Positions 8,123-59,020 of a stretch of 64,000 nt of DNA are shown piece after piece. Below the pieces are notes generated by a model, which saw nothing but the letters and a program-made list of their open reading frames with translations, ran no database searches and had not been told where the DNA came from. Positions within the stretch are counted from its first letter, which is position 1. The number at the start of each line of letters is the position of its first letter. The position numbers were made by a program, and so were the translations under genes. The DNA lies in the NCBI GenBank assembly GCA_963707635.1, contig OY970173.1, forward strand, positions 1,440,001-1,504,000, read 5' to 3'. This DNA comes from Candidatus Latescibacterota bacterium. Lineage in GTDB: Bacteria; Krumholzibacteriota; Krumholzibacteriia; WVZY01; JAKEHA01.

Positions 8123-10042
8123 ATGAGCATCGTTTTGAGGTTCGTGCGAACGATCGGCGTACTGATCATTACTCTTGTGCTTGCGGAGCACGCGCATGCA
8201 GGGCCTCCGCTCGCGCTAATCTTCACGCCTGGCAACCAACTCGCCCACCACGAGTCCTACTGGTTGGCTCCATACACCCTGTACACGATGCTGGAGGTCG
8301 GTTCCTCCCGTGAGACACGCGTTCAATGGTTCACCGCCGACGGCAGGTTGAAGCATGAGGTTCGAAACGCTGATGTCGACAACCCGGGGTTCGTCAGACG
8401 ACAGGACACCAGAGGCGAAACCTTCACGTCGGTCGCGAATCCGCATTGGGAGGTCTTTCTGCCTGCACGCAGGGACTGGGAGGGCCCGAGCGGATTCATC
8501 GCGTGGTCGCCGGATGGCAGAGTATTCATACATTCGAGTCGCGTGGGTGAAGCGTACGACGAATGGCCGCGCATCCCGACGACGATCGAGATGTTCATCG
8601 AAGGGAAACGGAAGACGCTCGGACCCTACACTGGCGCGCCGCGCGCGATTCAGCTCGATCCCAGTGGCGCCCTGGCCGTCCATTTCTTGGACGGACGACT
8701 GGTCCTCGTCGATCGGAGCGGGCGCGAGAGGTTTCAAACGACAGCGCCAGTGACTCCGGGCACGCGGCTGTTGGGCTGCAACGACTACGGTGTCCTGGTG
8801 GGAGATATGGACGACACGAGCCCAATTGAGTATTACGGCGTCGAAGGCGGTCGGACCTCCTTCAGAAAGCCAGGCGGGTACCCTGCCGTCTGGATCGGAC
8901 GTGATCGGGTACTCTTTGACAGCGCGCCCGACAGTTTGCTCCTTGTCGACTGCGCCAAGGGTGGAGTGATCTGGCGAAGGCATCATGACGGTGAGAGAAT
9001 TGTTTCAGGATCGCAAGCATACGCTGTCGTCGAGCCGTATCTGATCACAGCGGCAGCCGAGCTGCGCCCGTCGTCGGATGCCGAGTGGCCCGCGCTTTGG
9101 CTTCGCGCGCTCGAGCTTGAGACCGGTAAGCTCGTGGCGACCTGGGCGGGTAACCAGACTCGCGGCGCCCAGCCGCGCTTCTTCGAGAACGATGGGAGGG
9201 TCCTGTTCTTGGATGGTTCACGGCTCTCCAATGTCGACCCGGACGACATTCGGGAAAGCCGACAAGGATGGAGTTCTAGTCGGCCACCGGAACCTGCACC
9301 ACCCCTCTTCGAAGAGGGCCCTGCGGCGAGTCCGCTGTCGTGGGAGCCGATCCAGCCGCGCAAGCAAGCGACCGCGATGCTGTTCACGCCGCGGCAGCGG
9401 ATCGCGAACGTCGACCCCCTTCCTACTTCTGTGAACCTTGTGGACTTTCGCGATTCCCGGCCTTACGGCGAGAAGGAGCGACGCGATGTCTGGCTAGCCC
9501 GCTATGATTCGGTGCGCGTGCAAATCGACAGCACTCGTATTGCTATAGTGGAACACCTTTCGGCGGCATTCGACGCCACGACTGGTGATCTCGTGTGCGT
9601 CTTCACGGATCCGGCCCCCCGATGGATCCGTTCCAAGCAAGAGCCCGTCGACGCCGAGGCACGCGTCAGGGAATCACGCCACAGCGAGCTCGCGCCGGCT
9701 GAGTACTCCAGCTTGCAGTCGACCCCTGTGGACATCGTCGGTGCGCTGCTGGGCTCGCGCTACGTCGAGCTGAGTACTGTGGGGCAGATCGTGCTGCGAC
9801 CGCGTTTCGTCACTGCGCAGTTCCCGGCGCGTCGGTTCGAGGGCAAGCTCATTCCGATCATCCCACCGTCCAACATGTGGATCGTCGAGGTGCTGGGATT
9901 CAAGGCGGATCAAGTAGTGGGTGATCGTCCCGAGGTTGAGTGCATCCCGATCGCCGGCATCCCAAGTGATCGTCACGTTCCCGCCATTGTCATCGGGGAC
10001 GTCCGCAACCGACGTGATGGTCGGTTCTGGCCTGCCCCATGA
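8123..10042 (+). CDS. Hypothetical exported protein, possible beta-propeller; 3' end overlaps an antisense remnant
   Basis: Signal-like MSIVLRFVRTIGVLIITLVLAEHAHAG; WSPDGR and ALELETGKLVATW propeller-like motifs; codon usage differs from neighbours. Confidence 0.55.
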   Translation: MSIVLRFVRTIGVLIITLVLAEHAHAGPPLALIFTPGNQLAHHESYWLAPYTLYTMLEVGSSRETRVQWFTADGRLKHEVRNADVDNPGFVRRQDTRGETFTSVANPHWEVFLPARRDWEGPSGFIAWSPDGRVFIHSSRVGEAYDEWPRIPTTIEMFIEGKRKTLGPYTGAPRAIQLDPSGALAVHFLDGRLVLVDRSGRERFQTTAPVTPGTRLLGCNDYGVLVGDMDDTSPIEYYGVEGGRTSFRKPGGYPAVWIGRDRVLFDSAPDSLLLVDCAKGGVIWRRHHDGERIVSGSQAYAVVEPYLITAAAELRPSSDAEWPALWLRALELETGKLVATWAGNQTRGAQPRFFENDGRVLFLDGSRLSNVDPDDIRESRQGWSSSRPPEPAPPLFEEGPAASPLSWEPIQPRKQATAMLFTPRQRIANVDPLPTSVNLVDFRDSRPYGEKERRDVWLARYDSVRVQIDSTRIAIVEHLSAAFDATTGDLVCVFTDPAPRWIRSKQEPVDAEARVRESRHSELAPAEYSSLQSTPVDIVGALLGSRYVELSTVGQIVLRPRFVTAQFPARRFEGKLIPIIPPSNMWIVEVLGFKADQVVGDRPEVECIPIAGIPSDRHVPAIVIGDVRNRRDGRFWPAP

Positions 10043-10614
10043 CCCATACCGACTCTCCACCCGCTGAGCGTAGTACCCGCCGCCCGTCGATATCGTACGT
10101 GAAGATGCCCGCTGGTTGCCGTGAGACGATCGTGGGGTAAAGTTGGTTCGCTGCTGTGCAAACGGCAACACCGCCGGCAACCCAGACCGGATCCCCGGAA
10201 GCATTCAGCCGCTGCGCATACACATCCCGTACCGCCAGGTGATGATGGCTCCGCTCCCCCGTCCGAGACAAGCTCAGGGTCGAAGCCACCCTGCGTCGTG
10301 ACGGCGACGCCGTTGGGCGTCCACAGGGGCACTCCGGACATGTTCACCCGCTGCGCATACACGCTGCGAATGCCGCCGCGTCCGTCCTCCCAGGTGATGA
10401 TGGCGCCGTGGGCGCCGTCCCGAATGATCTCGGGCGACAGGTCATACTGGGCGGTGGAAAGGGAGACACCACCGCCGGTGCACAATGGAACCCCGGACTC
10501 GTCCAAACGCTGCACGAAAATGCCATAGTTAAAGTCCCCCGCTCGGCTGTCCGTCCAGGTAACGATGGATCCAAGGCCGTCCGACGTGACTTGCGGGGAA
10601 GCGGGGCCGGGCAC
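9912..10614 (-). pseudogene. Decayed fragment of an 'SDGxGGAIITWxDxR...YAQR' repeat surface protein
   Basis: Repeats (SDGLGSIVTWTDSR..FVQRL, DGAHGAIITWEDGR..YAQRV, DVYAQRL, YYAQRV) and VADVPDDNGGNVTITW are spread over three frames; no signal peptide or C-terminal domain. Confidence 0.65.
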
Positions 10615-17846: not shown

Positions 17847-18710
17847 ATGCGTTTCAGCAACTTCCGTCCTACGTGCCTGGCAGCGCTCGCGGTCTTCGCG
17901 CTGGGCGTTATCGCCTGCAGCGAAGACACCACCACGCCGGATACGCCGTCGACGGTCGACGTGTATTTCAACCTGAACGTCGATGGTCCGGGCCTGCAGC
18001 TGAATAACCTCATTTACACGACCCCGGCCGGGACGAAGTACAGCATCAAGGTTCTCAAGTTCGTCATTTCCGACATCGTCCTGCACGCCGACGACGGCAA
18101 GACCGCGAGGATTGCCGACATTCACTACTTCGATGTCGGCGACGGGAGCACGCAGACGTTTCGGGACTCCTCGGTGCCCCACGCGAACTGGACGTCGGTG
18201 TCGTTCACCTTCGGGCTGGACGAGACCAAGAACGTGCGCGACAAGTATCAGTCGAATGCCAAGTTCCATGCCGCCATGCAATGGCCGACGGGACTGGGCG
18301 CCAGCCTCGGGTATCACTACATGCAGCTGGAGGGGAACTACGAGACCACGCCGGGCGGGGCCACGGCCGGCTACACCACCCACACCGGCCCGCGCCAGCT
18401 CGATGGCACCAATCCCGACTTCCCGGGCGTGGTCGACGCGACGCCGTATCACTACTTCTTCAAAGTGGACCTTCCGTTCACGCCGACCCATATCCACGAG
18501 GGCGGCCACGGCGACCTCGAGCTGTTCTTCAACCTGAACGACTGGTATCTCGACAGCACGCCGGCGGACGGGAACGACACCGCGTACGACTTTACGACGC
18601 TGGGTAACCAGATGATCATGGGGAACCTGGACGCGCAGGCGCGCCTGCAGACCAACGGGCGGTTCTGCTTCTCGGCGAAGCTCACGGCGACCGGCGGCCA
18701 CGATCACTAG
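17847..18710 (+). CDS. MbnP-family lipoprotein
   Basis: Lipobox VIAC; LKFVISDI, FTFGLD, MQWP...GYHYMQLEG; directly upstream of a di-heme peroxidase. Confidence 0.75.
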   Translation: MRFSNFRPTCLAALAVFALGVIACSEDTTTPDTPSTVDVYFNLNVDGPGLQLNNLIYTTPAGTKYSIKVLKFVISDIVLHADDGKTARIADIHYFDVGDGSTQTFRDSSVPHANWTSVSFTFGLDETKNVRDKYQSNAKFHAAMQWPTGLGASLGYHYMQLEGNYETTPGGATAGYTTHTGPRQLDGTNPDFPGVVDATPYHYFFKVDLPFTPTHIHEGGHGDLELFFNLNDWYLDSTPADGNDTAYDFTTLGNQMIMGNLDAQARLQTNGRFCFSAKLTATGGHDH

Positions 18711-18773
18711 CATCGACACCCGCGTTGGGCAGCCGATCGGAGCCGAACGCGATCGTAGTACCCACGAAGGACC

Positions 18774-19844
18774 ATGACGAAGTATCGGCGACAGGCGGCG
18801 TGGCTGATCGTGCTCGCGGCGCTGTCCGCGTGCTCGGGCAACGACGGTGTGACTCCCCCGGACGATACGCCCGAATGCCCGCCCGCTGAGCGTCTCACGC
18901 TCGACCTCCCGCCCGGCTTTCCCGAGCTCCCGGACCCGAAAGAAAACCGGCTCACCCGGCAGGGCGTCGCGCTGGGACGGCGACTCTTCTACGACCCGAT
19001 CCTCTCCGGCGACAGCACCCAGGCGTGCGGCACGTGTCACCGGCAGTGGGCCGGCTTCGGCGACACCCGCCGCTTCAGCGAAGGCATCGACGGCATCAAG
19101 GGCACGCGACAGGCCCCGACCATCGTGAACCCGGGGTGGATGATGTTCGGGCAATTCTGGGACGGCCGCGAGCCCGACCTCGAGGGACAGGCCACGCGCC
19201 CGGTGCCGAACCCGATCGAGATGCACCTGCCGTGGGCGGTGGCGGTGGAGCGCCTGAAGCAGCACCCGGAGTATCCGGACCTCTTCTGCGCCGCGTTCGG
19301 CGACAGCCGCATCGATTCGATTCGCGTCGTCAAAGCGATCGCGCAGTTCGAACGCACGTTTATTTCTACCAATTCGAAGTACGACCGCTGGAAACGGGGT
19401 GAAGACACGCTCTCGACCGCGGAACTGGCCGGCTACCGGATCTTCACCACCGAAGTGGGAGACTGCTTCCACTGCCACATGGAGCCGCTCTTCAGCACGG
19501 GCACCTTCCACAACACCGGCCTCGACGTCGTCCCAATCGATCGCGGCCGGATGGACGTGACCGGCAACCCGGCGGATATCGGCAAGTTCAAGGCGCCGTC
19601 GCTGCGCAACATCATGGAATCGTCTCCCTACATGCACGACGGCCGCTTCGCGAGCATCTATGACGTGGTCAATCACTACAACATGGGTTTCCACGACGGA
19701 CCCGACGTGGATCCGTTGATCCGGGTGCGCCTGAGCCGCCGTCCCATGCGGGTCGGCGAGGTCGATACGTTGATTACCTTCCTGGAGGCCCTGACCGACC
19801 CGACCTTTCTGACCAACCCGGATCTCTCGAACCCCAACCCGTAG
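18774..19844 (+). CDS. Di-heme cytochrome c peroxidase, MauG/MbnH family lipoprotein
   Basis: Lipobox LSAC; LGRRLFYD, CGTCH, FWDGR, CFHCH, FKAPSLRN, PYMHDG. Confidence 0.92.
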   Translation: MTKYRRQAAWLIVLAALSACSGNDGVTPPDDTPECPPAERLTLDLPPGFPELPDPKENRLTRQGVALGRRLFYDPILSGDSTQACGTCHRQWAGFGDTRRFSEGIDGIKGTRQAPTIVNPGWMMFGQFWDGREPDLEGQATRPVPNPIEMHLPWAVAVERLKQHPEYPDLFCAAFGDSRIDSIRVVKAIAQFERTFISTNSKYDRWKRGEDTLSTAELAGYRIFTTEVGDCFHCHMEPLFSTGTFHNTGLDVVPIDRGRMDVTGNPADIGKFKAPSLRNIMESSPYMHDGRFASIYDVVNHYNMGFHDGPDVDPLIRVRLSRRPMRVGEVDTLITFLEALTDPTFLTNPDLSNPNP

Positions 19845-22804: not shown

Positions 22805-22995
22805 TCGGTTCTTGCATGTGCCGCGGTACGCGGAATCAGTTCTCGGCCGCAACGCGTTACCAATAAACGAAGTGCCGCGCCGTTTGCGGCGCGGATACGG
22901 CGTTTTCTGCGCCTTTTGGCGCAGCGCCGCGGGTGAAAAAGCGGAAATTGGTGACCTCGGTGAGGCGCCTGGATCGAACGAGGAGAACGCGAGCC

Positions 22996-24778
22996 ATGAC
23001 AACGACCGTCGCACGCACCACCGCCATTCTCGCCGTTACGCTGGCCGGGCTCCTGGCGAACCCGGGGAGGGCGACCGCTATCCCGCCCCACGTCTCGACT
23101 GCCTTCCCCGTGGCGCAGCGGGCGAACATTTCCGCCAGCGCCGTCATCTCGGTGAACTTCGACGACGCGATCGACCCGACAACGGTGAACGAGATCACGT
23201 TCCGCGTGTTCGGCCGCTGGTCGGGGCCGGCCAGCGGGAGCTACGTCGTCACCCTCAACAACATCACGTTTACGCCGAGCGAACCGTTCTTCGCCGGGGA
23301 GTGGGTCACCGCTAGCTTGAGCAAGGGCATCAAGAGCATGTCCGGCGAGGCGCTGGCCAAGGGCTACGCGTGGAATTTCTGGATCAAGACCGTGGGCACG
23401 CTGCTCGACCTGGAGTACGTCGGTCGGATATCGACGCGCGAACACAACGAGACGGTGCACGTCGTACGGCGCCTACGCCGGCGACCTGGACAACGACGGG
23501 TGGGGCGATCTGACCGTTATCAACGAAATAACGAGCGACGCGCGCATATTCATGAACGAAGCCGGGACGTTCAGCGGGTCCTTCACCATCGAAAGTCTGG
23601 TGGACGGCGAAACTCCCAGCCCGAATGAGATGGGGGACTTCGATAACGATGGCGAGATCGACCTGGTGGTGGCGAACCTCGACAACGACAAGATCAGTAT
23701 TCTCTTCGGCGATGGCACGGGCGATTTCCCGAACGGGCGGAAGGTTTCCTATTCAGTCGCGCCGGCGGTGTCCCACCAGGTGAGGGGAGTAGGCGTCCTC
23801 GACCTGAATGGTGACGGCTGGGACGACATCATCGCGGCCGACTACTTTGGCAACCAGCTCTCGGTCTTTATCAACAACGGCGACGGCACCTTCGCCCCCG
23901 CGGTCGCCAAGGAGACCGGTGGCAACGGGGAGTACGCGCTCGCCATCGCCGACGCGAACAACGACGGCCTGCTGGACGTCTTCTCCGCGAACTTCGGCTC
24001 CACGCGTTACGTCACAGTTCTCTTGAGCGACGGCAACGGCGGACTCACTGCGCAAACGCCGACGGTGGTGGGCGGGCGCCCCTGGCAGATGGTGGCCGGT
24101 GACTTCAACAGCGACGGCAACGTCGACGTCGCGGCGGACAATACCTACGAGAACCGTGTCGCGGTCCTGTTCGGCAACGGGCTGGGCGGGCTGGCGGCTC
24201 CGAACTACTACGGCGTCGGAAGCTTCCCGCTCGCGATCGATACCGGCGACATCGATGGAGACGGTGACCTCGAGCTGGTGGCCAGCAACTACGACTCGGG
24301 CACGTGGACCCTCTACGAGAATCGCGACGGCATCTTCATGAACCCGCGCACGTTCAACTCGAGCTCGTCCGGCTCATGCATGACACTCCACGACCGCGAC
24401 AACGACGGCGACCTCGACATGACCGGCATCGACGAGATCGACGACTGGATTTACTTCTTCCAGAACGAGCCGCCGGTGACGGGAATCACTCCGGCGGTAG
24501 CGTCGGTGACACTCTTCCAGAACCACCCGAATCCGTTCAACCCGACGACGACGATCCGTTTCGAGTTGACCAAGTCTTCGCGCGTCGAGCTGGCCGTGTT
24601 CGATGCCGCCGGCGCGCGTGTGGCCGAGCTGGCGGACGGCGTCTACCCCGCGGGTGAGACCGACGTGAACTGGAACGGAACCGACCTGGAGGGCCACCGC
24701 GTCAGCTCCGGGGTTTATTTCTACCGGCTGGTGTCGGGGGCCGACGTGCTCACCCGCAAGATGGTGCTTCTCAAGTAG
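22996..24778 (+). CDS. Secreted Ig-like + FG-GAP/VCBS repeat protein with FlgD-Ig/T9SS-type C-terminal domain; frameshift near 23461
   Basis: AGGAG RBS, signal peptide, ISVNFDDAIDP Ig domain, GDFDNDGEIDL-type repeats, LFQNHPNPFNP...SGVYFYRL...RKMVLLK; removing one base at ~23461 restores SYGAYAGDLDNDG. Confidence 0.8.
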
Positions 24779-26829: not shown

Positions 26830-27828
26830 ATGCGTTTGCTAGCGGGATTGGGCGCGCTGCTCGTTTGCCTCTTCGCCCCCGTCGTGGTTCCGGCGGGCGA
26901 GGGCGCCGGGTCGCTTCCCATCTGTGCCGTGTGCGGCAAGCCCATTACCGAGGACCTGTTCCAGACCAAGGGGCTCTCGTACCACTCGGACCACTTCCGC
27001 TGCGCGCACTGCGACCGCCCCATCACCGGGCCGTACAGCGAATACGGCGGGAAGAACTACCACACCGACTGCTTCGAGAACCACGTCGCGCTGAAGTGTT
27101 CGCTCTGTGGAGCGCTGATCCACGGCGAGTATCTGCAGGACTACTGGGGAAACTCCTACTGCTACCGTCACGACGGCGAGGCGCCGGTGTGCGACTCGTG
27201 CGGGCGTTTCATCTCCGACCAGACCACGGGCGGCGGCGTTCGATACGACGACGGACGCTTCGTGTGCAACCTCTGCCGGCCCAAGTCGATCACCGACGTC
27301 GACGAGATCCTGGAGCTGGTGCACGAGGTCGCGCAGCGCATGGCGACCTTCGGCATGGACGTGGACTACAACGGCGTCAAGATTCACCTGGTCGGCCGGG
27401 ACGACATGCAGAAACTGTCCGGCCACCATTCGGAAGGGCTGCGCGGGTTTACGGACTACCGCGAGGACTTTCGCGTGTTCGGAAAGTCCAAGAACCGCCG
27501 CATGGACATGTACCTCCTCTACGGCATGCCGCGCATGGAGCTGGTGAGCACGATCGCGCACGAGCTCGGCCACGTATGGCAGTTCAACCATGGCCGCTTC
27601 AAGAATGATCGCCTGTGGGCTGAGGGCAGCTGCAACTACGCCGCCTATCTCGTGCTGGGGCAGTATCCGGGGCGCGAGGGCTCGTTCTTCCGCACCAGTC
27701 TGACCCGCGACGAAGACTCGGTCTACGGCGAGGGCCTGCGGCGCGTGAAGACGCTCGCCGAGGCCGAGGGCACGAAGAAGTGGCTTCGCTATCTCTCCAG
27801 GAACGCCGACTTCCCGGCCGGGTACTGA
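26830..27828 (+). CDS. DA1-like protein: signal peptide + LIM + LIM-like zinc fingers + HEXXH metallopeptidase
   Basis: CxxC-x16-HxxH-x2-CxxC-x16-HxxC; CSLC..YWGNSYCYRH..CDSC..DGRFVCNLC; LYGMP, IAHELGHVW, EGSCN, VYGEG. Confidence 0.85.
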   Translation: MRLLAGLGALLVCLFAPVVVPAGEGAGSLPICAVCGKPITEDLFQTKGLSYHSDHFRCAHCDRPITGPYSEYGGKNYHTDCFENHVALKCSLCGALIHGEYLQDYWGNSYCYRHDGEAPVCDSCGRFISDQTTGGGVRYDDGRFVCNLCRPKSITDVDEILELVHEVAQRMATFGMDVDYNGVKIHLVGRDDMQKLSGHHSEGLRGFTDYREDFRVFGKSKNRRMDMYLLYGMPRMELVSTIAHELGHVWQFNHGRFKNDRLWAEGSCNYAAYLVLGQYPGREGSFFRTSLTRDEDSVYGEGLRRVKTLAEAEGTKKWLRYLSRNADFPAGY

Positions 27829-48799: not shown

Positions 48800-51700
48800 G
48801 TGCGCATCACCACGTGTCGCCTGCGCCTCGCCTGTTCTGTGCTCGCATTGTCCGCCTTGTTCTTGCCCCGCGGCGCGCGCGGCGGGGAGATGTCCTACGT
48901 CCTCGAGACGCCGGCCGCGTCGATCCAGCTCGAGCGTGACGCCGTCGCCGATCGCGCGGTGGCGAGCGACCCGCAGTTCTATTACGTGGCCGAGGCCGGG
49001 TTGCCGGCGCTCCCGTACCGCGTGATCAGCCTGCTGCTCCCGCCGGGCGAAGCCGTCGACCGGTTCGAGATCGTCTCCGGTCCGCCGACGGTGATCGCGT
49101 CGTCGGTGCGACTGGCCGTCGCGCCGCCCGCGGAGGGTCCGGACGGCTTGCCCGCGAGTACCTCGACGGCCGCGGTTTGGAACGAGACGGCGTATCCCTC
49201 GGAGGGCGCGGTCTACCTGGGTACGGGATATCTGCACGGTTGCGCGATCGCGAGTTTTGCGGTGTACCCGGTTTCGATCGCGGCGGGAACGCTGACGGTC
49301 AACGAGCGGGTGGAATTGCGCGTCACCACGCGCGGCGACGACCCGACCCGCCGCGTCGCCCGGCGCTTGCGTTATCGCGAAGGATTCGAGGAGACGCTGC
49401 ACCGGCGCCTCGAGGGGCTGGTGGTCAACACCGACGAAATGTCGGCGTACGCGGCGACGGCCACGCGCGTCCCGGAAGCTTCCGGTGGATTCAACCCGAC
49501 GTCACTTCCGGCCCTCGAAGGCAGCGGCGTCGACTACGTGATCATCACCAACGATTCCCTCGCGGCCGCGTTCCAGATCCTGGCGGACTGGAAGACGGCG
49601 AAGGGCGTTCGCACCGTCGTTCGCACCACCGAATGGATCCAGGCCAACTACCGCAACGGGGTCGACCCGGCCGAGACCATCCGCACCTTCATTCTCGACG
49701 CGTATCAGAAGTGGGGGATCACGTACGCGCTGCTGGGCGGCGACGCGGAGCAGGTACCGGTGCGGCTCGGCGCGTCGAAGTATCTGGGCACGAAGGATCT
49801 TCCCGCCGACATGTACTTCGGGTGTCTGGACGGCGACTGGAACGCCGACCACGACAAGCTCTTCGGTGAGGGCGGTCCCACCGACCAGGCCGACCTCTAC
49901 CAGGAGGTGTACACCGGGCGCCTGCCGGCGGTGAGCGTGGCCACCGCGAGTATCATGATCAACAAGATCATGAGCTACGAAACGCCGGCCGACCCGTCCT
50001 ACACCGGAACCGCGCTGCTGCTCGCCGAGGTGCTGTTTCCGACCGATTGGGACGGAAGCGCGCCCATTACCCAGGACGGAGCCGCCATCGCGGAGTTTGC
50101 GTACGCCCTGGCCCTGGACGATCCGGCGCTCACGGTCTCGCGCATGTACGAGAACAATATGCCGTACAACGTCGCGCCGGAGACGAGGGCCTCCACGCTT
50201 GCCGCCCTCAACGCCGGCGTCGACCAGGTCAATCACATCGGCCACGGTTTTCGGTTCAACATGTCGGTCGGCGACGGCAGCGTGGTGAACGCCGACGCCG
50301 ATGTGCTCACCAACACCGACCGCTATTCCAACATGTATCTGCTCAACTGCACCGTCGTCGCCTACACCTACTTCTGCCTGGGCGAGCATTTTCTGCTCAG
50401 CCCCGCCGGCGGAGCCGTGTCCGTCATCGGCGCCAACGAGAGCGCGTACCCGCTGATATCGCAGCCGTACATGAACGAGTACTACGACCTCCTGATCAAC
50501 GACGATGTCGTGCACATCGGCGAGGCGTTCGCGCGCTCGCGCGAGCCCCGCACACCGATTGCCTCAAACGGGGACAATGCCGACCTGTGGACGCATTACA
50601 TCTACACCATCCTGGCGGACCCGGAGATGCCGCTGTGGACCGCGCCGGTGCAGCCGCTGGTCGTGTCGCACCCAACGCTCATGCAACGGGGCACCACCAA
50701 CGTGACCGTCCACGTGAACGACGCAGGCGGTCCGGTCGCGGGTGCAACGGTGTGTTTGTCGAAGGGAAGCGAGAGCTACGGGGTAGGCACCACCGACGCG
50801 AACGGCAACGTGGCCCTCAAGACGACGGCGGAATCCGCAGGCAGTGTTCGCGTCGTCGCGACCGCTCTCAACCGCTCGCGGTATGAAGGGTCGATTTATG
50901 TGCTGCCTTCGATTCCCGCGTACGTGTCCTACGTCGGCCTGGACGCGGACGATGATGCAGTCGGCGCGACCAGCGGCAACGGCGACGGCGTGATCGATGC
51001 CGGCGAAGTGATCGAGTTCATCACAGAGGTCGGCAACACCGGGAACGCCGACGCGTCCGGCGTGACGCTCACGCTGCGTTCGAGCACGAGCGGCGTTCTG
51101 GTCGAAGACAGCACCGCCCTGGCGGGGACCGTGGCGGCGGGCGACACCTCGAGCGCGCTCGATTCGTTCCGTGTCCGCTTTGCGCCCGGGATCGCAGATG
51201 AGACGCCCGCCGCCTTCACCCTGGTGGTTAACGCGGACGACGTGCCGGGGTGGACAGGCTCCTTCAAGAAACTGGTGCACGCGCCCGCGATCGAGTTCGA
51301 CGTGCTGCGCATCGACGACGCTACGACCGGAAACGGCGACGGCCTCGTCCAGGCGGGCGAGAATGTGCGCGTCTACTACACGATTCGCAACTTCGGCACC
51401 GGGGCCGCGTACGGACTTGCCGCGACCCTCACGGATCTCGAGGGCGCGTTCACGATCACGAACGGCGCGTCCGGGTACGCGAGCATGACGACGGCGGGAG
51501 CGGCGGAAAATGCGACCGGGTTCGCCCTGAGCGAGAGCAGCGTGGCGACGGAGCACGATCTGCGCCTGGCAGTGACGGACGCCCACGGCAATGCCTGGGA
51601 GAAGGTATTCGAGTTGCGTCCGCCGCCGGCGCCGGTGAACCTGACGTTCAACCCGAGTGTCGGGCCGACCCGGCTGCAGCTGGCCTGGGACGCTCCGCCG

Positions 51701-53758
51701 GGCTCGACCGACGTGAATCGGTATCGCGCCTACCGGTCGCTGACGGCGGGGGGACCCTACACGGTGGCGACGGTGGACCCGGTACGGCACACGACCTTCC
51801 TCGACACCGGCCTGCAGCCCACGACCCGCTACTACTACCGCGTCAGCGCGGTGGACGTGTCGGGCAACGAGAGCGCGCTGTCCGCCGAGTACAGCGGCAG
51901 CACCAACCCGGCGCAGGTCGTGGGGTGGCCGATCAAGATGAGCGTGGAGACGGTGAGTTCGCCGGTGATGGGGGATATCGACGGCGACCACGACTTCGAG
52001 CTCATCCAGGGCGACGGCAAGCTGTACGCGTGGCACCACAACGGAGTGGAGCTGCGCGACGCCGACGCGAACGCGCAGACCTGGGGACTCTTCAGCACGC
52101 TCGGGAATTCGTTCGTCTCGCACCCCGCGCTGGCCGAGATCGACGCCGTCAACGGTCTCGACATCCTGGCGGCGTCGCGCGACACCAGGGAGGTGTTCGC
52201 GTTCAACTATACCGGCAACGTGATCGCCGGGTGGCCGCGGCCGGTTGAGAACGCCATCCGTGCGGGCCTGGTGGCGGGTGACATCAACGGGGACGGTCAG
52301 AAGGAAGTAATCGCCATCGACGAGAAGGGCGTGCTCTACGTGTGGAGGGCCAACGGCGCCGAGTATCGCAACGGCGACAACAACGCCGCCACCCAGGGGA
52401 TATTCCGCAAGTTCGGCGGGTGTGTCTACCAGTACACGTGTCCCGCCATCGGGAACTTCGACGCCGACGGCCTCAACGAGATCGTCGTGGGCACGCAAGG
52501 CGATTCCGTGTTCGTTCTCAACGAAAACGGCACCCTCGTGCCGGGGTGGCCGAAGGCGTTCAGCTCCGACATCTCCGGCAGCATCGCGCTGGGCGACATC
52601 GACGGCAACGGCGACCTCGAAATGGTGGTGTGCGAATACGGCGGCAACGTGTGGGCGCTCAATCACGACGGGACCACAATGTGGATGCAGTGGTTTCCGA
52701 ATCAGCTCACCTTCGGACCGTCCCCGGCGCTGGGGGACCTCGATGGCGACGGAAAACTCGAGGTGGTCGTTCCGAGCAAGAACCGCAACCTTTACGCGAT
52801 CCGGTACAATGGCGGCTATCTCCCCGGGTGGCCGGTCGTGTATACGAGCCAGCTCTGGACGGAGTCGTCGCCGGTGATCGCGGATATCAACAACGACGGT
52901 TCGCTCGACGTCGTGCTCGGCGACGAGACCCGTTTCATCAACGGCTGGGACGCCGCCGGCCAACCGCTGGCCGGATTCCCGCTCGCGACTGGCGACGCGG
53001 TGCGCGCCACGCCGATGATCGCGGACCTCGACAAAGACGGCGACGTCGAAGTGATCGCCGCCGGGTGGGACAAGACCGTCTATGTCTGGGATTTCCCGGC
53101 GATGTTCAACCCGCTGATGGCGCCGTGGTCGAAGTTCCACGCCAATCTCTACAACGATGGTAACATTCACACGCCGGTGCCGACGCCGGTGCGCGCGGTC
53201 TCGTTCAATTTCACGCGGCGGGATGCGGGAATGGAACTGGTGTGGGCGGTGCCCGCAGAGGCGGGCGGGGAGTTCACGGTGAGGCGGGCGGAAGTGGTGG
53301 GCGGAGAGACGGGGGGATTCGCGCTGGTGGCGGCGGGGGTGGGGACCGGTGTGGACGGGATGGTGCGGGTGGTGGACCGGGGCGTGGAGATGGGGTCGCG
53401 CTACGTGTATCACCTGGAGAACACGGGGGGGACGTTGATCCACGAGACGGCGGGGTTGTACGTGCCGGTGACGCGGGCGGTGCTGGGTCAGAACTACCCG
53501 AACCCGTTCAACCCGGTGACAAAGATCGAGTACTGGGTGCCGGAGGGATCGGGCAAGACGCCGGTGAGCCTGGTGATCTACGATGTGCGGGGGGCGCGGG
53601 TGCGGACGGTGGTGAACGAGGGGCAGGCGGCGGGCCGGTACGTGGTGGAGTGGGACGGGCGGACGGAGGGCGGCGCGCCGGCCGGATCGGGCGTATACTT
53701 CTACAAGCTTCAGACGCCCGGTTTTTCGGATGCCCGCAAGATGGTGCTCCTGAAGTGA
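48800..53758 (+). CDS. Secreted C25 (gingipain-family) cysteine peptidase + FN3 + FG-GAP + FlgD-Ig/T9SS-type CTD, paralog 1
   Basis: GGAGG RBS and GTG 48800; propeptide GLPALP, DYVIIT, LLGGD, GRLP, HIGHG/LNC dyad, FN3 YYYRVSAVD, GDIDGD repeats, QNYPNPFNP...RKMVLLK. Confidence 0.88.
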   Translation: MRITTCRLRLACSVLALSALFLPRGARGGEMSYVLETPAASIQLERDAVADRAVASDPQFYYVAEAGLPALPYRVISLLLPPGEAVDRFEIVSGPPTVIASSVRLAVAPPAEGPDGLPASTSTAAVWNETAYPSEGAVYLGTGYLHGCAIASFAVYPVSIAAGTLTVNERVELRVTTRGDDPTRRVARRLRYREGFEETLHRRLEGLVVNTDEMSAYAATATRVPEASGGFNPTSLPALEGSGVDYVIITNDSLAAAFQILADWKTAKGVRTVVRTTEWIQANYRNGVDPAETIRTFILDAYQKWGITYALLGGDAEQVPVRLGASKYLGTKDLPADMYFGCLDGDWNADHDKLFGEGGPTDQADLYQEVYTGRLPAVSVATASIMINKIMSYETPADPSYTGTALLLAEVLFPTDWDGSAPITQDGAAIAEFAYALALDDPALTVSRMYENNMPYNVAPETRASTLAALNAGVDQVNHIGHGFRFNMSVGDGSVVNADADVLTNTDRYSNMYLLNCTVVAYTYFCLGEHFLLSPAGGAVSVIGANESAYPLISQPYMNEYYDLLINDDVVHIGEAFARSREPRTPIASNGDNADLWTHYIYTILADPEMPLWTAPVQPLVVSHPTLMQRGTTNVTVHVNDAGGPVAGATVCLSKGSESYGVGTTDANGNVALKTTAESAGSVRVVATALNRSRYEGSIYVLPSIPAYVSYVGLDADDDAVGATSGNGDGVIDAGEVIEFITEVGNTGNADASGVTLTLRSSTSGVLVEDSTALAGTVAAGDTSSALDSFRVRFAPGIADETPAAFTLVVNADDVPGWTGSFKKLVHAPAIEFDVLRIDDATTGNGDGLVQAGENVRVYYTIRNFGTGAAYGLAATLTDLEGAFTITNGASGYASMTTAGAAENATGFALSESSVATEHDLRLAVTDAHGNAWEKVFELRPPPAPVNLTFNPSVGPTRLQLAWDAPPGSTDVNRYRAYRSLTAGGPYTVATVDPVRHTTFLDTGLQPTTRYYYRVSAVDVSGNESALSAEYSGSTNPAQVVGWPIKMSVETVSSPVMGDIDGDHDFELIQGDGKLYAWHHNGVELRDADANAQTWGLFSTLGNSFVSHPALAEIDAVNGLDILAASRDTREVFAFNYTGNVIAGWPRPVENAIRAGLVAGDINGDGQKEVIAIDEKGVLYVWRANGAEYRNGDNNAATQGIFRKFGGCVYQYTCPAIGNFDADGLNEIVVGTQGDSVFVLNENGTLVPGWPKAFSSDISGSIALGDIDGNGDLEMVVCEYGGNVWALNHDGTTMWMQWFPNQLTFGPSPALGDLDGDGKLEVVVPSKNRNLYAIRYNGGYLPGWPVVYTSQLWTESSPVIADINNDGSLDVVLGDETRFINGWDAAGQPLAGFPLATGDAVRATPMIADLDKDGDVEVIAAGWDKTVYVWDFPAMFNPLMAPWSKFHANLYNDGNIHTPVPTPVRAVSFNFTRRDAGMELVWAVPAEAGGEFTVRRAEVVGGETGGFALVAAGVGTGVDGMVRVVDRGVEMGSRYVYHLENTGGTLIHETAGLYVPVTRAVLGQNYPNPFNPVTKIEYWVPEGSGKTPVSLVIYDVRGARVRTVVNEGQAAGRYVVEWDGRTEGGAPAGSGVYFYKLQTPGFSDARKMVLLK
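53198..53662 (+). repeat. Near-identical G-rich C-terminal module, copy 1
   Basis: Aligns by eye almost base for base with ~58190-58655 and ~63471-63885. Confidence 0.9.
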
Positions 53759-53791
53759 CACGCCCCTGTATACAAACAGAGGAGACGAAGT

Positions 53792-56700
53792 ATGTGGCTG
53801 GGTCGGGATAATAGCGTTCGGGTGCTGGTGCCGGTGTTCTTGGCGGCGATCGTTTCCTCGGGGGGTGCGGCGACGCTGTCGCACACCGTCATCCTCTCGA
53901 GCGAACGCGTTCGACTGTCGCCCGGCCCGGGTGGACTGAGCGTGTCGGTCGACGACCGTGCGTACACGACGCTTGCGGATCCAGGACTGCCGGCGCTCCC
54001 GTTTCGCGTGGTGAGCTTCGTGCTGCCTCAGGGGGAAGACGTCGGCGGCTTTCGGGCCGTCGAGTCCGGCCGGCGCGTGATCTCCGCCGGGGCGGAGCTG
54101 GCCGTGGCCGGCCCGGCGCGCAGCGAGGACGGCGGCGAAGGCGTCGGCGCCGCCATGGCGTCGCGAGCCGGCGGGCTGTATCCGTCGGAGCGCGCTCGCC
54201 TGCTCGGGGTGGGCCGGCTGCACGGCTACACCATCGCGAGCTTCGCGGTATTCCCACTCCAGGTCGAAGATACGGAACTGACGGCGTCGGATCGGATCAC
54301 GCTCGAAGTGGAGACGGTGCCGTCGACCCGCCCGGCGGTCACGTTGCAGCGCGCCCGCGCCGCGGTCCGCCAGCGCGCGCGCGCCGAACTGGCGAGTCTG
54401 GTAGTCAATCCCGCCGACGCGGATGCCTACCTGTTCGCGGAACCCGTCGTGCCGAAGCCGCAAGGCGGGTTCAGCCCGACGTCGTTTCCGTCGCTGGAGG
54501 GGAGCGCGGTGGACTACGTGATCGTCACGCCGGACTCACTCGCCGCGGCGTACCAGGCCCTCGCGGACTTCAAGACCCGCAAGGGCGTGCCCACCGTCGT
54601 TCGCACGGTTGAATGGATCCAGGCCAACTACCGCAACGGTTCCGACCTGCAGGAGACGATCCGCAACTTCGTGATCGACGCCTACCAGAAGTGGGGCATC
54701 ACCTACCTTCTCCTCGGCGGCGACACGAGCGAGGTTCCGGTTCGGTTCGCGTACAGCGGCTTTTACGACGGCGGTCGTTTTCTGCCCGTCGACATGTACT
54801 TCGGCTGCCTCGACGGTGACTGGAACGACGACCACGACGAGGTCTTCGGTGAGGCGGCACCTTACGACAACCCCGACCTCTACGCGGAGGTCTACGTCGG
54901 CCGGATGCCGAGTTCGTCGGTTGCCGAAGTGAACATGCTGATCGGAAAAGTGATCGCTTACGAGACGCCCCTCGACATGACCCTCGGCCAGAAGGTCCTG
55001 CTGCTCGGTGAGATCCTCTTTCCGACGAACTGGACGCCTCCCCAGGTGATCACGCTCAACGGGCCCGATCTCATCGAACCCATTTACAACAATGAAATGC
55101 TCCCGGTGGCCGGACTGAACGCGCTGCGCATGTACGAGACCGAAGAGTTGTACCCGGGCGCGGTGGACGAGAACCGCGCGGCGGTGATCGCCCAGCTCAA
55201 TGCCGGCTACAACCACGTGGTTCACATCGGCCACGGGTACCGCTTCAACATGTCGGTGGGCGACGTGAGCATCGTCAACGCCGACGCGGACGCGCTCACC
55301 AACGGAAACCGCCTCTCGTGCCTGTATTTCCTGAATTGTACGGGTGCCGCCTACAACTACTACTGCCTGGCCGAGCACTACCTGCGCAACCCGAACGGCG
55401 GCGCCGTTTCGGTGGTCGGGGCCAACGAAAGCGCGTTTCCGAACGCGTCCACCGCCTACATGAACGAGTACTACCACCGTGTGTTCACCAGCGGGGTGAA
55501 GCACATCGGGGAAGCGTTTGCGCGCTCGAGGCTGCCGCGGACGGTGCTGGCGGAACTCGGCGACAACGTCGACCTGTGGACGCACTACATCTACACCCTG
55601 CTCAGCGACCCCGAACTTTCCCTGTGGACCGGCCCCGTGACCACGCTGAGCGTGAACCACCCGGCGAGCGTGTCGAAGGGGACCCATTCGATTCTGGTGA
55701 CCGTGACGAGCGGCGGGAACCCGGTCGATTCCGCGACGGTGTGCCTGTCGAAGGCGGACGAGGACTACGAGGTGGGGGTCACGAACGGGGCGGGCCAGGT
55801 GACGCTGTCGTTCCGCGCGGAAACGACGGGCAACATCGACGTCGTGGTCACCGGGCCCAACCACGCCCGCCACGAAAGCACGATCAGCGTGGGCGGGACG
55901 GGCGCCTATGTGGCCATCAGCTCGATGACCATCGACGACGACGGCGCGGGAGGGACGAGCGGGAACGGCAACGGGGTGATCGATGCGGGAGAGACGGTGG
56001 ACCTCGCGATCACGCTCAAGAATACCGGGACCGCGGCGACCAACAACGTGACCGCGACCCTGCGCAGCACCGACGCCGGGGTGACGCTCGTCGACAGCAC
56101 GGCGGGGGTGGGCGTCATCGCCGCGGCCGGGACCGCGCTGGCCACGGGTGGGGTGCGCGTGACGTTCTCGTCCTCGCTCGGGGACGCCCACGCCGTGCCC
56201 TTCACGCTCGTGATCAAGAACGACGGCACCCCGACCTGGACCGACGAGTTCAAGAAAGAGGCTCACCGTCCCGTGCTGGACCTGGTGAAGCTGCGGGTGG
56301 ACGACACTGGGACCGGCAACGGCAACGGCATCGTGGAGAACGGCGAGCAATTCAAGCTATTCTACAAGGTGAAGAACTTCGGGACGGGGGCGTACCCGGG
56401 AGGGAACGGCACCGTCAGCGACCTCGACACGGCGTTCACGCTGGTGGACCCGACCGACCCCTACCCCGTCATCGCGGCGCACGGGCAGGCGGAGAACACG
56501 GGCGGGTTCGTGCTGGTGGAAGCGGACGCGTCGGTGGAGCACCGGTTGCGGATATCGATCGTCGACCTGTACGGGCGGGCGTACGTGGACACGGTGGAGC
56601 TGCGGGTGCCGACGGCGCCGAGCGCGCTCGTGATCGACCCCAGCCTGGGACCGGACCGGTTGAAAGTGACGTGGACGGCGAGTCCGAGCCCGGACGTGGC

Positions 56701-58750
56701 ACACTACAATATTTACCGTTCGTTGAACGCGGGCGGTCCGTTCGTGCTCGCCAACGCGGACCCGGTTGCGCACGCCATTTTCGTCAACGTCGGCCTGGCG
56801 CCGAACACCGCCTACTATTTCAAGGCCAGCGCCCTCGACGAGGACGGCAACGAGAGCGGGATGTCCGCCGCCGCTTCCGGGAGCACCAACCCGAAACAGA
56901 TGTCCGGCTGGCCGATCGCGATGAAGGCGGAGACCAGCTCGTCACCGGCGGTGGGCGACATCGACGGCGACGGCGACAACGAGATCGTCGTGGGCGCCGA
57001 CCGCGTCTACGCGTGGCACGCGAATGGAATCGAAATGGTCGACGGCGACAACGATGCCCAGAGCTGGGGCGTGATTTCCCCGCTCGGCAGCTCGTTCGTG
57101 TCGAGCGTGGCGCTGGCCCGCATCGACCATGAGCCCGGGCTCGACATCGTGGCGGCGTCGCGCGACTCGCGCGAGGTCTTCGTATTCAACTACCAGGGTG
57201 ATGTGCTGACGGGGTGGCCCCAGGAGGTGGAGAACACGCTGCGCGCGGGAATGGTGGTCGCCGACCTGGATGGAAACGGGCTCTTCGAAATCGTCGCGGT
57301 CGACGAGAAAGGTGTCATCTACGCCTGGAAGGCGGACGGCACCGAGTTCATCGACGGCGACGCGAACCCGGCGACGCCGGGCGTCTTCTATCGCATGCCC
57401 AACTGCACGTTCAACTACTCGACACCGGCGGCGGCCGACATCGACAACGACGGCAAGGACGAACTGATCGTGGGGTCGCAGGGTGATCTCGTTTACGTAT
57501 TCAACGAGAACGCGAGCATGTCCCCCGGCTGGCCGTTCGCGCTGGTTAGCGACATCGCGGGCAGCCCGGTGGTGGGCGACGTCGACGCGAACGGCGATCT
57601 CGAGATCGCTTTCAATGAGGCGGGCGGGTCGCTGTGGGTCCTCAACCACGACGCCACCACGCTGATGTATCAGTACTTCACCAACAACCCGGCGAACAAT
57701 TTCTTTTCGACCTCGCCGGCGCTCGGCAATATCACCGGCGACGCGAAGCTCGAGATCGTGGTGGCGAGGGCGAGCGGGAAGATCTACGCGATGTCCAGCA
57801 CCGGCGTGGTGCTGCCCGGCTGGCCGGTGAATTACTCGGTGACGACCTACAGCGAATCGTCGCCGATTATCGCCGACCTGGACGGCAACGGATCTCCGGA
57901 CATCGTTATGGGTGACGAAACCCAGTTCATCGATGCGTTCAATGTGAGCGGCCAGTCGATTGCGGGTTTTCCGTTGGCGACCAGCGATGCGATGCGCGGG
58001 GTTCCGACCGCGGCGGATGTGGACCAGGACGGGAGCGTGGATCTGGTGGCGGCGGGCTGGGACAAGAATGTCTACGCGTGGGACTTCACGGGGACATGGA
58101 ATCCGGCGAATGCGCCGTGGCCGCGCTTCCACGCCAACCTGCACAACAACGGACGCATGGGATTCGTGGTGCCCACGCCGGTGCACGGAGTCTCGTTCAA
58201 CGTCACGCGGCGGGATGCGGGAATGGAACTGGTGTGGGCGGTACCCACGGAAGCGGGCGGCGAGTTCACGGTGAGGCGGGCGGAAGTGGTGGGCGGAGAG
58301 ACGGGGGGATTCGCGCTGGTGACGGCGGGGGTGGGGATCGGTGTGGACGGGATGGTGCGGGTGGTGGACCGGGGTGTGGAGATGGGGTCGCGCTACGTGT
58401 ATCACCTGGAGAACACGGGGGGGACGTTGATCCACGAGACGGCGGGGTTGTACGTGCCGGTGACACGCGCGGTGCTGGGCCAGAACTACCCGAATCCGTT
58501 CAACCCGGTGACAAAGATCGAGTACTGGGTGCCGGAGGGATCGGGCAAGACGCCGGTGAGCCTGGTGATCTACGACGTGCGGGGGGCGCGGGTGCGGACG
58601 GTGGTGAACGAGGGGCAGGCGGCGGGCCGGTATGTGGTGGAGTGGGACGGGCGGGACGACCGGGGGACGCGGGCCGCCTCGGGGGTCTACTTCTACCGTA
58701 TGACGGCGTCCGGTTTCGCGGACGTCCGCAAGATGGTGTTGATGAAGTAG
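53792..58750 (+). CDS. Secreted C25 peptidase + FN3 + FG-GAP + CTD, paralog 2
   Basis: AGGAG RBS; same architecture with HIGHG/LNC; ends RKMVLMK. Confidence 0.9.
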   Translation: MWLGRDNSVRVLVPVFLAAIVSSGGAATLSHTVILSSERVRLSPGPGGLSVSVDDRAYTTLADPGLPALPFRVVSFVLPQGEDVGGFRAVESGRRVISAGAELAVAGPARSEDGGEGVGAAMASRAGGLYPSERARLLGVGRLHGYTIASFAVFPLQVEDTELTASDRITLEVETVPSTRPAVTLQRARAAVRQRARAELASLVVNPADADAYLFAEPVVPKPQGGFSPTSFPSLEGSAVDYVIVTPDSLAAAYQALADFKTRKGVPTVVRTVEWIQANYRNGSDLQETIRNFVIDAYQKWGITYLLLGGDTSEVPVRFAYSGFYDGGRFLPVDMYFGCLDGDWNDDHDEVFGEAAPYDNPDLYAEVYVGRMPSSSVAEVNMLIGKVIAYETPLDMTLGQKVLLLGEILFPTNWTPPQVITLNGPDLIEPIYNNEMLPVAGLNALRMYETEELYPGAVDENRAAVIAQLNAGYNHVVHIGHGYRFNMSVGDVSIVNADADALTNGNRLSCLYFLNCTGAAYNYYCLAEHYLRNPNGGAVSVVGANESAFPNASTAYMNEYYHRVFTSGVKHIGEAFARSRLPRTVLAELGDNVDLWTHYIYTLLSDPELSLWTGPVTTLSVNHPASVSKGTHSILVTVTSGGNPVDSATVCLSKADEDYEVGVTNGAGQVTLSFRAETTGNIDVVVTGPNHARHESTISVGGTGAYVAISSMTIDDDGAGGTSGNGNGVIDAGETVDLAITLKNTGTAATNNVTATLRSTDAGVTLVDSTAGVGVIAAAGTALATGGVRVTFSSSLGDAHAVPFTLVIKNDGTPTWTDEFKKEAHRPVLDLVKLRVDDTGTGNGNGIVENGEQFKLFYKVKNFGTGAYPGGNGTVSDLDTAFTLVDPTDPYPVIAAHGQAENTGGFVLVEADASVEHRLRISIVDLYGRAYVDTVELRVPTAPSALVIDPSLGPDRLKVTWTASPSPDVAHYNIYRSLNAGGPFVLANADPVAHAIFVNVGLAPNTAYYFKASALDEDGNESGMSAAASGSTNPKQMSGWPIAMKAETSSSPAVGDIDGDGDNEIVVGADRVYAWHANGIEMVDGDNDAQSWGVISPLGSSFVSSVALARIDHEPGLDIVAASRDSREVFVFNYQGDVLTGWPQEVENTLRAGMVVADLDGNGLFEIVAVDEKGVIYAWKADGTEFIDGDANPATPGVFYRMPNCTFNYSTPAAADIDNDGKDELIVGSQGDLVYVFNENASMSPGWPFALVSDIAGSPVVGDVDANGDLEIAFNEAGGSLWVLNHDATTLMYQYFTNNPANNFFSTSPALGNITGDAKLEIVVARASGKIYAMSSTGVVLPGWPVNYSVTTYSESSPIIADLDGNGSPDIVMGDETQFIDAFNVSGQSIAGFPLATSDAMRGVPTAADVDQDGSVDLVAAGWDKNVYAWDFTGTWNPANAPWPRFHANLHNNGRMGFVVPTPVHGVSFNVTRRDAGMELVWAVPTEAGGEFTVRRAEVVGGETGGFALVTAGVGIGVDGMVRVVDRGVEMGSRYVYHLENTGGTLIHETAGLYVPVTRAVLGQNYPNPFNPVTKIEYWVPEGSGKTPVSLVIYDVRGARVRTVVNEGQAAGRYVVEWDGRDDRGTRAASGVYFYRMTASGFADVRKMVLMK
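57980..58750 (+). repeat. Near-identical G-rich C-terminal module, copy 2
   Basis: Shares ~58190-58655 with copy 1, and most of 57980-58750 with copy 3. Confidence 0.9.
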
Positions 58751-58777
58751 TGGTTTGTGATGCGCGGGCGTCGGAGG

Positions 58778-58807
58778 TTGACTCCGCCGCACCGCGCGGG
58801 GTATACT
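58778..58807 (+). promoter_or_regulatory. Putative sigma70 promoter of C25 paralog 3
   Basis: TTGACT-N18-TATACT. Confidence 0.65.
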
Positions 58808-59020
58808 CAATCCTCCTCGAATCGCAGGCACGACAACCGCGGGGGCTATAAGGCACATCGCGAACTGCTACCAACGACCGTTGTTTTTCTCTCCATAATC
58901 AGGCCAACGAAGACCTTGTCCGAGCGCCGGAGCGGCGTGCGCCGCCGGCACGGACCCGAACCATCGAGCGTTGATCGCCCGGCGCTTGCGCCGGCCGCAC
59001 GGGTTGCTACGGGAGGACTC

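Follow-up and report, generated by a model that had tools for sequence, protein, structure and literature searches.

The 332-aa open reading frame at positions 26830–27828 (+ strand) of the 64,000-nucleotide stretch of DNA analysed here (the window) is intact and is the gene for a protein with a LIM domain, a LIM-like module and a DA1-type zinc peptidase domain (the LIM–DA1 gene). We put at about 55% the probability that its product is a soluble zinc endopeptidase which Sec exports to the periplasm and which would process or remove selected proteins of the cell's own envelope. Judged by its sequence, the protein is a further member of a bacterial LIM–DA1 family that is already recognised, and the discovery is modest for that reason; what is new here is a split of the family into two branches and a link to an envelope that appears to lack DsbA, DsbB and VKOR, and these are the parts worth following.

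Gene and domain architecture

The LIM–DA1 gene has the following features:

26830..27828, + strand, gene for the LIM, LIM-like and DA1-type peptidase protein (Pfam, single copy, dN/dS)
26830..26895, + strand, predicted Sec signal peptide, residues 1 to about 22 (hydropathy/charge heuristic; low pLDDT in residues 1–20)
26923..27072, + strand, LIM domain, fingers 1 (C32, C35, H52, H55) and 2 (C58, C61, H78, C81) (PF00412)
27097..27276, + strand, LIM-like module, fingers 3 (C90, C93, C111, H114) and 4 (C121, C124, C146, C149)
27292..27825, + strand, clan MA gluzincin-type peptidase domain, residues 155–332 (PF12315, fold)
27559..27573, + strand, HExxH (H244, E245, H248), predicted to supply two zinc ligands and the catalytic glutamate
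27622..27633, + strand, E265-G-S-C, predicted third zinc ligand (E265 in 113/116 leader-bearing rows of the alignment)
27724..27729, + strand, Y299-G300, predicted transition-state-stabilising tyrosine (residue conservation)

The open reading frame is a real gene, because dN/dS was 0.16–0.27 against all six related loci compared. It is present in single copy, as the sole tblastn match in the 3.2-Mb single-contig genome, and it also accounts for the only LIM match in that genome.

All of the motifs and spacings quoted in an earlier note on this DNA were found in the 332-aa translation. The ligands of the LIM finger pair read C32-x2-C35-x16-H52-x2-H55 and C58-x2-C61-x16-H78-x2-C81; they are followed, between the LIM and peptidase domains, by the extra CxxC/H pairs that mark a LIM-like module (C90-x2-C93...C111-x2-H114 and C121-x2-C124...C146-x2-C149) and, in the peptidase domain, by H244-E245-x2-H248, E265-G-S-C and Y299-G. 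The DA1-type architecture that the earlier note had read from these motifs was recovered by both Pfam models: LIM, with a cut-off of 22.9, scored 39.9 bits (E = 4.9e-10), and DA1-like, with a cut-off of 25, passed by a narrow margin at 28.4 bits (E = 1.3e-6); DA1-like scores among the homologues ranged up to 98 bits. An NCBIfam scan of the protein gave a sub-threshold CxxC match only. The supposed absence of ubiquitin-interacting motifs (UIMs) was borne out, as none occurred among the ten Pfam families matched at E ≤ 1, and only 31 residues, forming the leader, precede the first cysteine. A C-terminal sorting domain was likewise absent from the Pfam matches of the protein; neighbouring genes carry FlgD_ig.

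For residue conservation, we aligned the 163 of 168 proteins that contained both CxxC and HExxH (116 leader-bearing, 28 leaderless, 15 unclear and 4 long). Conservation of HExxH is circular in this set, whereas that of E265, Y299 and the finger-4 cysteines is not: the Y299 position was tyrosine in 114/116 leader-bearing and 28/28 leaderless rows, and all four finger-4 cysteines were kept in 116/116 and 28/28, respectively. Among 56 close homologues, E245 was invariant and H244 and H248 nearly so. From gluzincin chemistry, we take H244, H248 and E265 to be zinc ligands, E245 the base and Y299 a helper, the transition-state role of Y299 being presumed from M1-type peptidases.

Predicted structure

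An AlphaFold2 model built with the 56 homologues reached a pLDDT of 91.4 and a pTM of 0.81, the leader being the one region modelled with low confidence. Foldseek returned 16 matches at E ≤ 0.001 with LIM proteins (PINCH, Lhx3, testin) on top, and the LIM domain matched the PINCH and paxillin LIM domains both by sequence and by fold. In VIA comparisons, residues 155–332 aligned with M1 aminopeptidase catalytic domains (Z 10.7–11.9, rmsd 2.7–3.3 Å, about 153 residues), the best match being an M1-family zinc peptidase (Z 11.9, rmsd 2.8 Å, 153 residues, 13% identity); middling structural Z-scores are common, and a common fold does not show function. Residues 28–152 also aligned with tandem-LIM structures, but at a high rmsd of 6.6–7.5 Å. 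The peptidase domain is assigned to the gluzincins on the combination of HExxH and a downstream glutamate (E265) with a thermolysin/M1-like fold. Superposition on Arabidopsis DA1 had been proposed in the earlier note; the LIM fingers and the M1/gluzincin-type catalytic fold were both present in the model, the structures compared being PDB LIM and M1 entries, and a DA1 peptidase was absent from the best 60 of the 110 PDB sequence matches to the family profile.

Leader and predicted export

We surveyed the leaders of 121 proteins (the LIM–DA1 protein and 120 listed homologues), of which 117 have 18 or more residues ahead of finger 1, using a hydropathy/charge heuristic with a loose cleavage pattern rather than SignalP. 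In the LIM–DA1 protein, the best 11-residue Kyte-Doolittle mean was 3.06, the predicted cleavage site was uncertain (22–26), and neither a lipobox nor a twin-arginine motif was present. By this heuristic, a hydrophobic core occurred in 114 of the 117 scorable close homologues, in agreement with the signal-like, exported-type N-terminus described earlier; the charge before the core was net positive in 106/114 and that after it neutral or negative in 90/114. The leaders are short and variable and often end in small-x-small motifs. Lipoprotein and Tat export were rejected for the close family, as the 114 leaders included two lipoboxes and no Tat motif. The LIM–DA1 protein is probably Sec-exported and periplasmic.

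If the N-terminus were instead an uncleaved membrane anchor, the LIM and peptidase domains would lie on the cytoplasmic side, an ordinary setting for zinc fingers. The atypical, proline-rich cleavage site of the LIM–DA1 protein and the existence of a leaderless, presumably cytoplasmic branch fit such an arrangement, but the positive-inside rule predicts orientation from the charge flanking a hydrophobic core, and the charge pattern described above points to N-in, C-out. Short, variable leaders with frequent small-x-small ends also argue against an anchor, which we regard as very improbable.

Distribution and genomic context

The initial homologue search recovered 179 proteins, the named ones from Candidatus Krumholzibacteria and one from Zixibacteria, so that the genome probably belongs to a member of the Krumholzibacteria. 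Homologues were 40–86% identical over their full length. The gene was present, mostly as one copy per genome, in 25/25 other sampled genomes of the order (16/16 and 9/9 in its two families) and in 0/125 genomes of the phylum outside the order; the outcome was the same whether these 150 genomes were searched with a single protein or, at E ≤ 1e-10, with a profile of 134 sequences. At E ≤ 1e-30 the full sequence library contained 251 matching clusters; a threshold of 1e-10 gave 811, which may include proteins matching through LIM only. The commonest taxa in the Atlas clusters were Krumholzibacteriota, Fidelibacterota, Bacillota, Pseudomonadota, Verrucomicrobiota, Bacteroidota and Lentisphaerota, and ESM Atlas clusters named 'protein DA1' were labelled 100% bacterial.

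NCBI likewise gives the name 'protein DA1' to bacterial members, such as WP_211829479.1 and MCK4776075.1, the second of which falls in the 90% cluster of P0085, a homologue 51% identical to the LIM–DA1 protein. Dong et al. (PMC5322733 and 10.1101/090563), citing Burroughs et al. 2011, note a high similarity of the DA1 family to Roseiflexus proteins that have four CxxC/H pairs. With this Roseiflexus LIM/DA1 relative and the NCBI names on record, the earlier view of LIM domains as essentially eukaryotic, and hence surprising here, is not supported. A large and already characterised bacterial family had been named as something that would lower the novelty: the family is indeed large and recognised, and an experimental study of a bacterial LIM/DA1 member was not found in the literature searched, which was mostly non-subscription.

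The gene starts 45 bases after an aldolase/SDR fusion gene, an isocitrate/isopropylmalate dehydrogenase gene lies next, and a sigma-70-like site occurs in the gap downstream of the LIM–DA1 gene. The aldolase/SDR and dehydrogenase neighbour clusters recurred at 14/26 and 11/26 loci, respectively, mainly within the genus, these 26 loci including at least two duplicated contigs. Neighbours varied at 14 more distant or paralogous loci (Pfam scan of 13 neighbour ORFs). A conserved operon was therefore rejected, neighbour order holding mainly within the genus and varying beyond it, and no conserved neighbour pointing to a substrate was found among the loci compared.

Two further observations were made at these loci. 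In four sister-family genomes (L037, L038, L040 and L043), the LIM–DA1 gene has a Ser/Thr kinase gene in its vicinity, with kinase and TPR confirmed at L037 only. A shorter paralogue (L044:5878-6633, G144) is a 251-aa frame with a leader and a DA1-like domain; it matches the LIM–DA1 protein only from residue 115 and thus apparently lacks the LIM domain.

Elsewhere in the window, an exported gene with Big_5, FG-GAP and FlgD_ig domains (22933-24778, +) is split over two frames, whose two products both match a single 598-aa ORF at a related locus; as read from these frames, the split is a frameshift or an assembly error. Three tandem genes of 1475–1652 aa (48800-63445, +) encode peptidase C25 (gingipain-type) with FG-GAP repeats, FlgD_ig being among the listed domains in two of the three. 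An MbnP and di-haem cytochrome c peroxidase gene pair (17847-19844, +) has lipoprotein-like leaders on both products, and two overlapping short ORFs (9674-10614, −), in a stretch of lower GC (about 0.62), look like pieces of a single exported repeat protein.

Two branches of the family

Two trees were built, a quick one of 146 rows that omitted the unclear ones and a careful, unrooted one of 60 rows picked from it; their rows come from the leader-bearing, leaderless and long proteins of the alignment, with land-plant DA1 not among them. Both trees divide the family in two: in the careful one, 16 leaderless proteins group with 2 leader-bearing and 3 long ones, opposite 36 leader-bearing and 3 leaderless proteins, with a support of 100/98. 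The LIM–DA1 protein fell on the mostly leader-bearing side, among bacterial leader-bearing relatives, while the cluster of WP_211829479.1 belongs with a leaderless protein of the other side.

The two sides also differed in residues and scores. The plant-type EE motif was found in 15 of the 16 leaderless members of the EE group and in 7/113 other leader-bearing rows. Position 111 was histidine in 92/113 leader-bearing and 0/16 leaderless rows and cysteine in 19/113 leader-bearing rows, the LIM–DA1 protein itself keeping C111. Histidine occupied LIM ligand 4 in 62/87 motifs of the exported branch versus 11/31 of the leaderless one; these His and EE counts are descriptive, since kin are not independent. 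The DA1-like model gave 54–98 bits for the 16 leaderless EE-branch proteins, against which the 28.4 bits of the LIM–DA1 protein is weak, and 21–63 bits for leader-bearing examples, so that the ranges overlap. In these trees, the mostly exported branch is separate from the leaderless EE-motif branch.

A search for longer family members returned five insect or fungal LIM proteins and four multi-LIM DA1-like proteins of 662–721 aa. P0303–P0306, which span this length range, combine several LIM domains with an EE-type DA1 peptidase and are possibly eukaryotic. The position of long proteins inside the leaderless branch may be a hint about eukaryotic forms.

The earlier note had offered both a prokaryotic relative of DA1 and a eukaryote-derived gene or effector as possible origins. 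The former was supported. Order-wide occurrence, mostly in single copy, and nesting among bacterial leader-bearing relatives told against a recent acquisition of the latter kind. DA1-family peptidases do influence plant–pathogen interactions (10.1101/2022.06.21.497003), and the LIM structures in the PDB matches listed are eukaryotic, as would suit a eukaryote-derived gene or a secreted effector that mimics DA1 in a eukaryotic host such as a plant. We nevertheless find this origin extremely unlikely: besides its order-wide occurrence, the gene has flank-like GC and housekeeping neighbours, searches of 72,556 plasmid and 50,697 phage records gave no match, and the protein lacks the plant-type EE and lies across the 100/98 branch from the EE-type group. 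A mobile origin was rejected on the flank-like GC and the lack of plasmid or phage matches.

Disulfide machinery and cysteine-rich fingers

Ligand positions exchange cysteine and histidine across the family, which points to metal binding rather than disulfides at these predicted sites. DsbA, DsbB, VKOR and Thioredoxin_4 gave no match in the 96%-complete genome, the same searches being positive in 8, 6, 3 and 9 of 14 reference genomes, respectively; one DsbD was found. DsbB occurred in 0/151 genomes of the phylum and VKOR in 3/151 (0/26 in the order of this genome); against this, DsbA-like Thioredoxin_4 genes were present in 5/25 other genomes of the order. The phylum is apparently a lineage without the usual disulfide-forming system. 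On the other hand, this genome encodes terminal oxidases with heme-copper and bd-type subunits, and the cell therefore probably meets oxygen.

According to PMC12453122, even cysteine counts are generally over-represented among the exported proteins of bacteria with DsbA and DsbB/VKOR. Among the 344 predicted exported proteins here, 246 contained cysteine and 108 of these (43.9%) had an even count, versus 43.3 ± 2.9% expected, and the cytoplasmic set gave 44.8% versus 44.9% expected; the test used custom gene calls and the signal heuristic on this genome alone, without a positive-control genome. Given the lack of a Dsb/VKOR match and of an even-cysteine bias, a non-oxidising envelope is the likely explanation for the tolerance of cysteine-rich fingers outside the cytoplasm. 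Missing Dsb would permit the LIM–DA1 protein but does not explain its range, because most other orders of the phylum are without DsbB/VKOR as well and yet do not have the gene.

Two other leader-bearing CxxC proteins were noted in this genome. In one (L047; G000:C1:123212-123859, −), a thioredoxin domain is joined to a weak YHS-like finger, and the other (L048; G000:C1:1100538-1101068, −; 176 aa) has no Pfam match.

Proposed function

As a periplasmic endopeptidase, the LIM–DA1 protein would be exported unfolded by Sec and its leader then cut off. It would fold outside the cytoplasm around five zinc ions, four of them structural and one catalytic, as should be possible in a lineage with a DsbD-type importer of reductant and, apparently, no system for forming disulfides. 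The LIM fingers would bind a partner or substrate and so give specificity, as eukaryotic LIM domains do, while H244, H248 and E265 would hold the catalytic zinc, E245 activate water and Y299 stabilise the transition state. Without UIMs, the peptidase would either be active constitutively or be turned on when a substrate docks on its fingers.

Exported proteolytic functions are not confined to this gene: the window also holds the three tandem peptidase C25 genes, an M10-like gene and a family 5 solute-binding protein gene, and the top fold matches of the catalytic domain are degradative M1 peptidases. A broad-specificity feeding peptidase, with fingers that are structural or hold substrates loosely, would accord with both facts. 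We rate it as unlikely, because the C25 set is expanded whereas this gene is kept mostly as one copy across the order with 40–86% full-length identity, transporters are not among its constant neighbours, and plant DA1 is a site-specific endopeptidase according to PMC5322733.

The fingers may alternatively form a zinc or thiol-redox switch in which oxidation or zinc loss gates the peptidase in the role that ubiquitin plays for plant DA1. Dong et al. 2017 (PMC5322733) report that plant DA1 needs UIMs and a LIM-like cysteine for activity, the replacement of one cysteine of the LIM-like module being enough to abolish peptidase activity, and leave open how the LIM-like module gates this organ-size regulator. 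The invariant finger-4 cysteines of the leader-bearing rows and a host with terminal oxidases but no DsbA/DsbB/VKOR match are in line with such a switch. However, the same cysteines are invariant in the leaderless relatives too, which fits a purely structural role, and the exported branch is richer in histidine at two ligand positions and so would be less redox-sensitive; a switch is distinctly unlikely on this evidence.

A broader proposal, which we consider improbable, is that LIM fingers work outside the cytoplasm in the exported branch only because its hosts leave envelope thiols unoxidised, that the fingers act as a zinc/oxidation switch gating proteolysis as a ubiquitin-free form of DA1 control, and that plant DA1 descends from the leaderless EE branch.

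Read as a periplasmic endopeptidase, the protein would show clearly that zinc fingers with several cysteines can function in the envelope of a bacterium. Being compact, free of UIMs and confidently modelled, it would also be a practical stand-in for studies of DA1 structure and mechanism.

Comparison with known systems

Compared with plant DA1/DAR (PF12315 and PF00412), the LIM–DA1 protein has the LIM domain, LIM-like module and clan MA peptidase in the same order, the same four zinc-finger pairs and an HExxH with its third ligand at equal spacing. It differs in lacking UIMs, a signal-like leader standing in their place, and in having HELGH-x15-AE where plant DA1 has HEMMH-x15-EE; the last glutamate is kept, E265 aligning with the second E of the plant motif, and the first is absent. 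The protein resembles DA1 in its architecture and predicted chemistry but, on predicted features, with neither UIMs nor the EE motif, it is outside the plant ubiquitin-activated subfamily.

Bacterial LIM–DA1 proteins, including the Roseiflexus example and those named 'protein DA1' by NCBI, belong to the same family, the LIM–DA1 protein being in its mostly leader-bearing branch and the WP_211829479.1 cluster in the leaderless EE branch.

M1 aminopeptidases and related gluzincins (tricorn factor F3, aminopeptidase N and leukotriene A4 hydrolase) share the fold and the HExxH with a downstream glutamate. Identity is, however, 11–16%, and about 153 residues align out of enzymes of 590–890 residues. 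M1 peptidases have the spacing HExxH-x18-E, whereas the LIM–DA1 protein has HExxH-x16-E, and zinc fingers replace the M1 accessory domains.

Residues 29–87 share the double zinc-finger fold of eukaryotic LIM adaptors (PINCH, paxillin, FHL and testin), with an rmsd of 1.7–2.6 Å to several single LIM domains. The usual LIM domain has cysteine at ligand positions 4 and 7, whereas the LIM–DA1 protein has histidine at both, is fused to a peptidase and is predicted to lie outside the cytoplasm.
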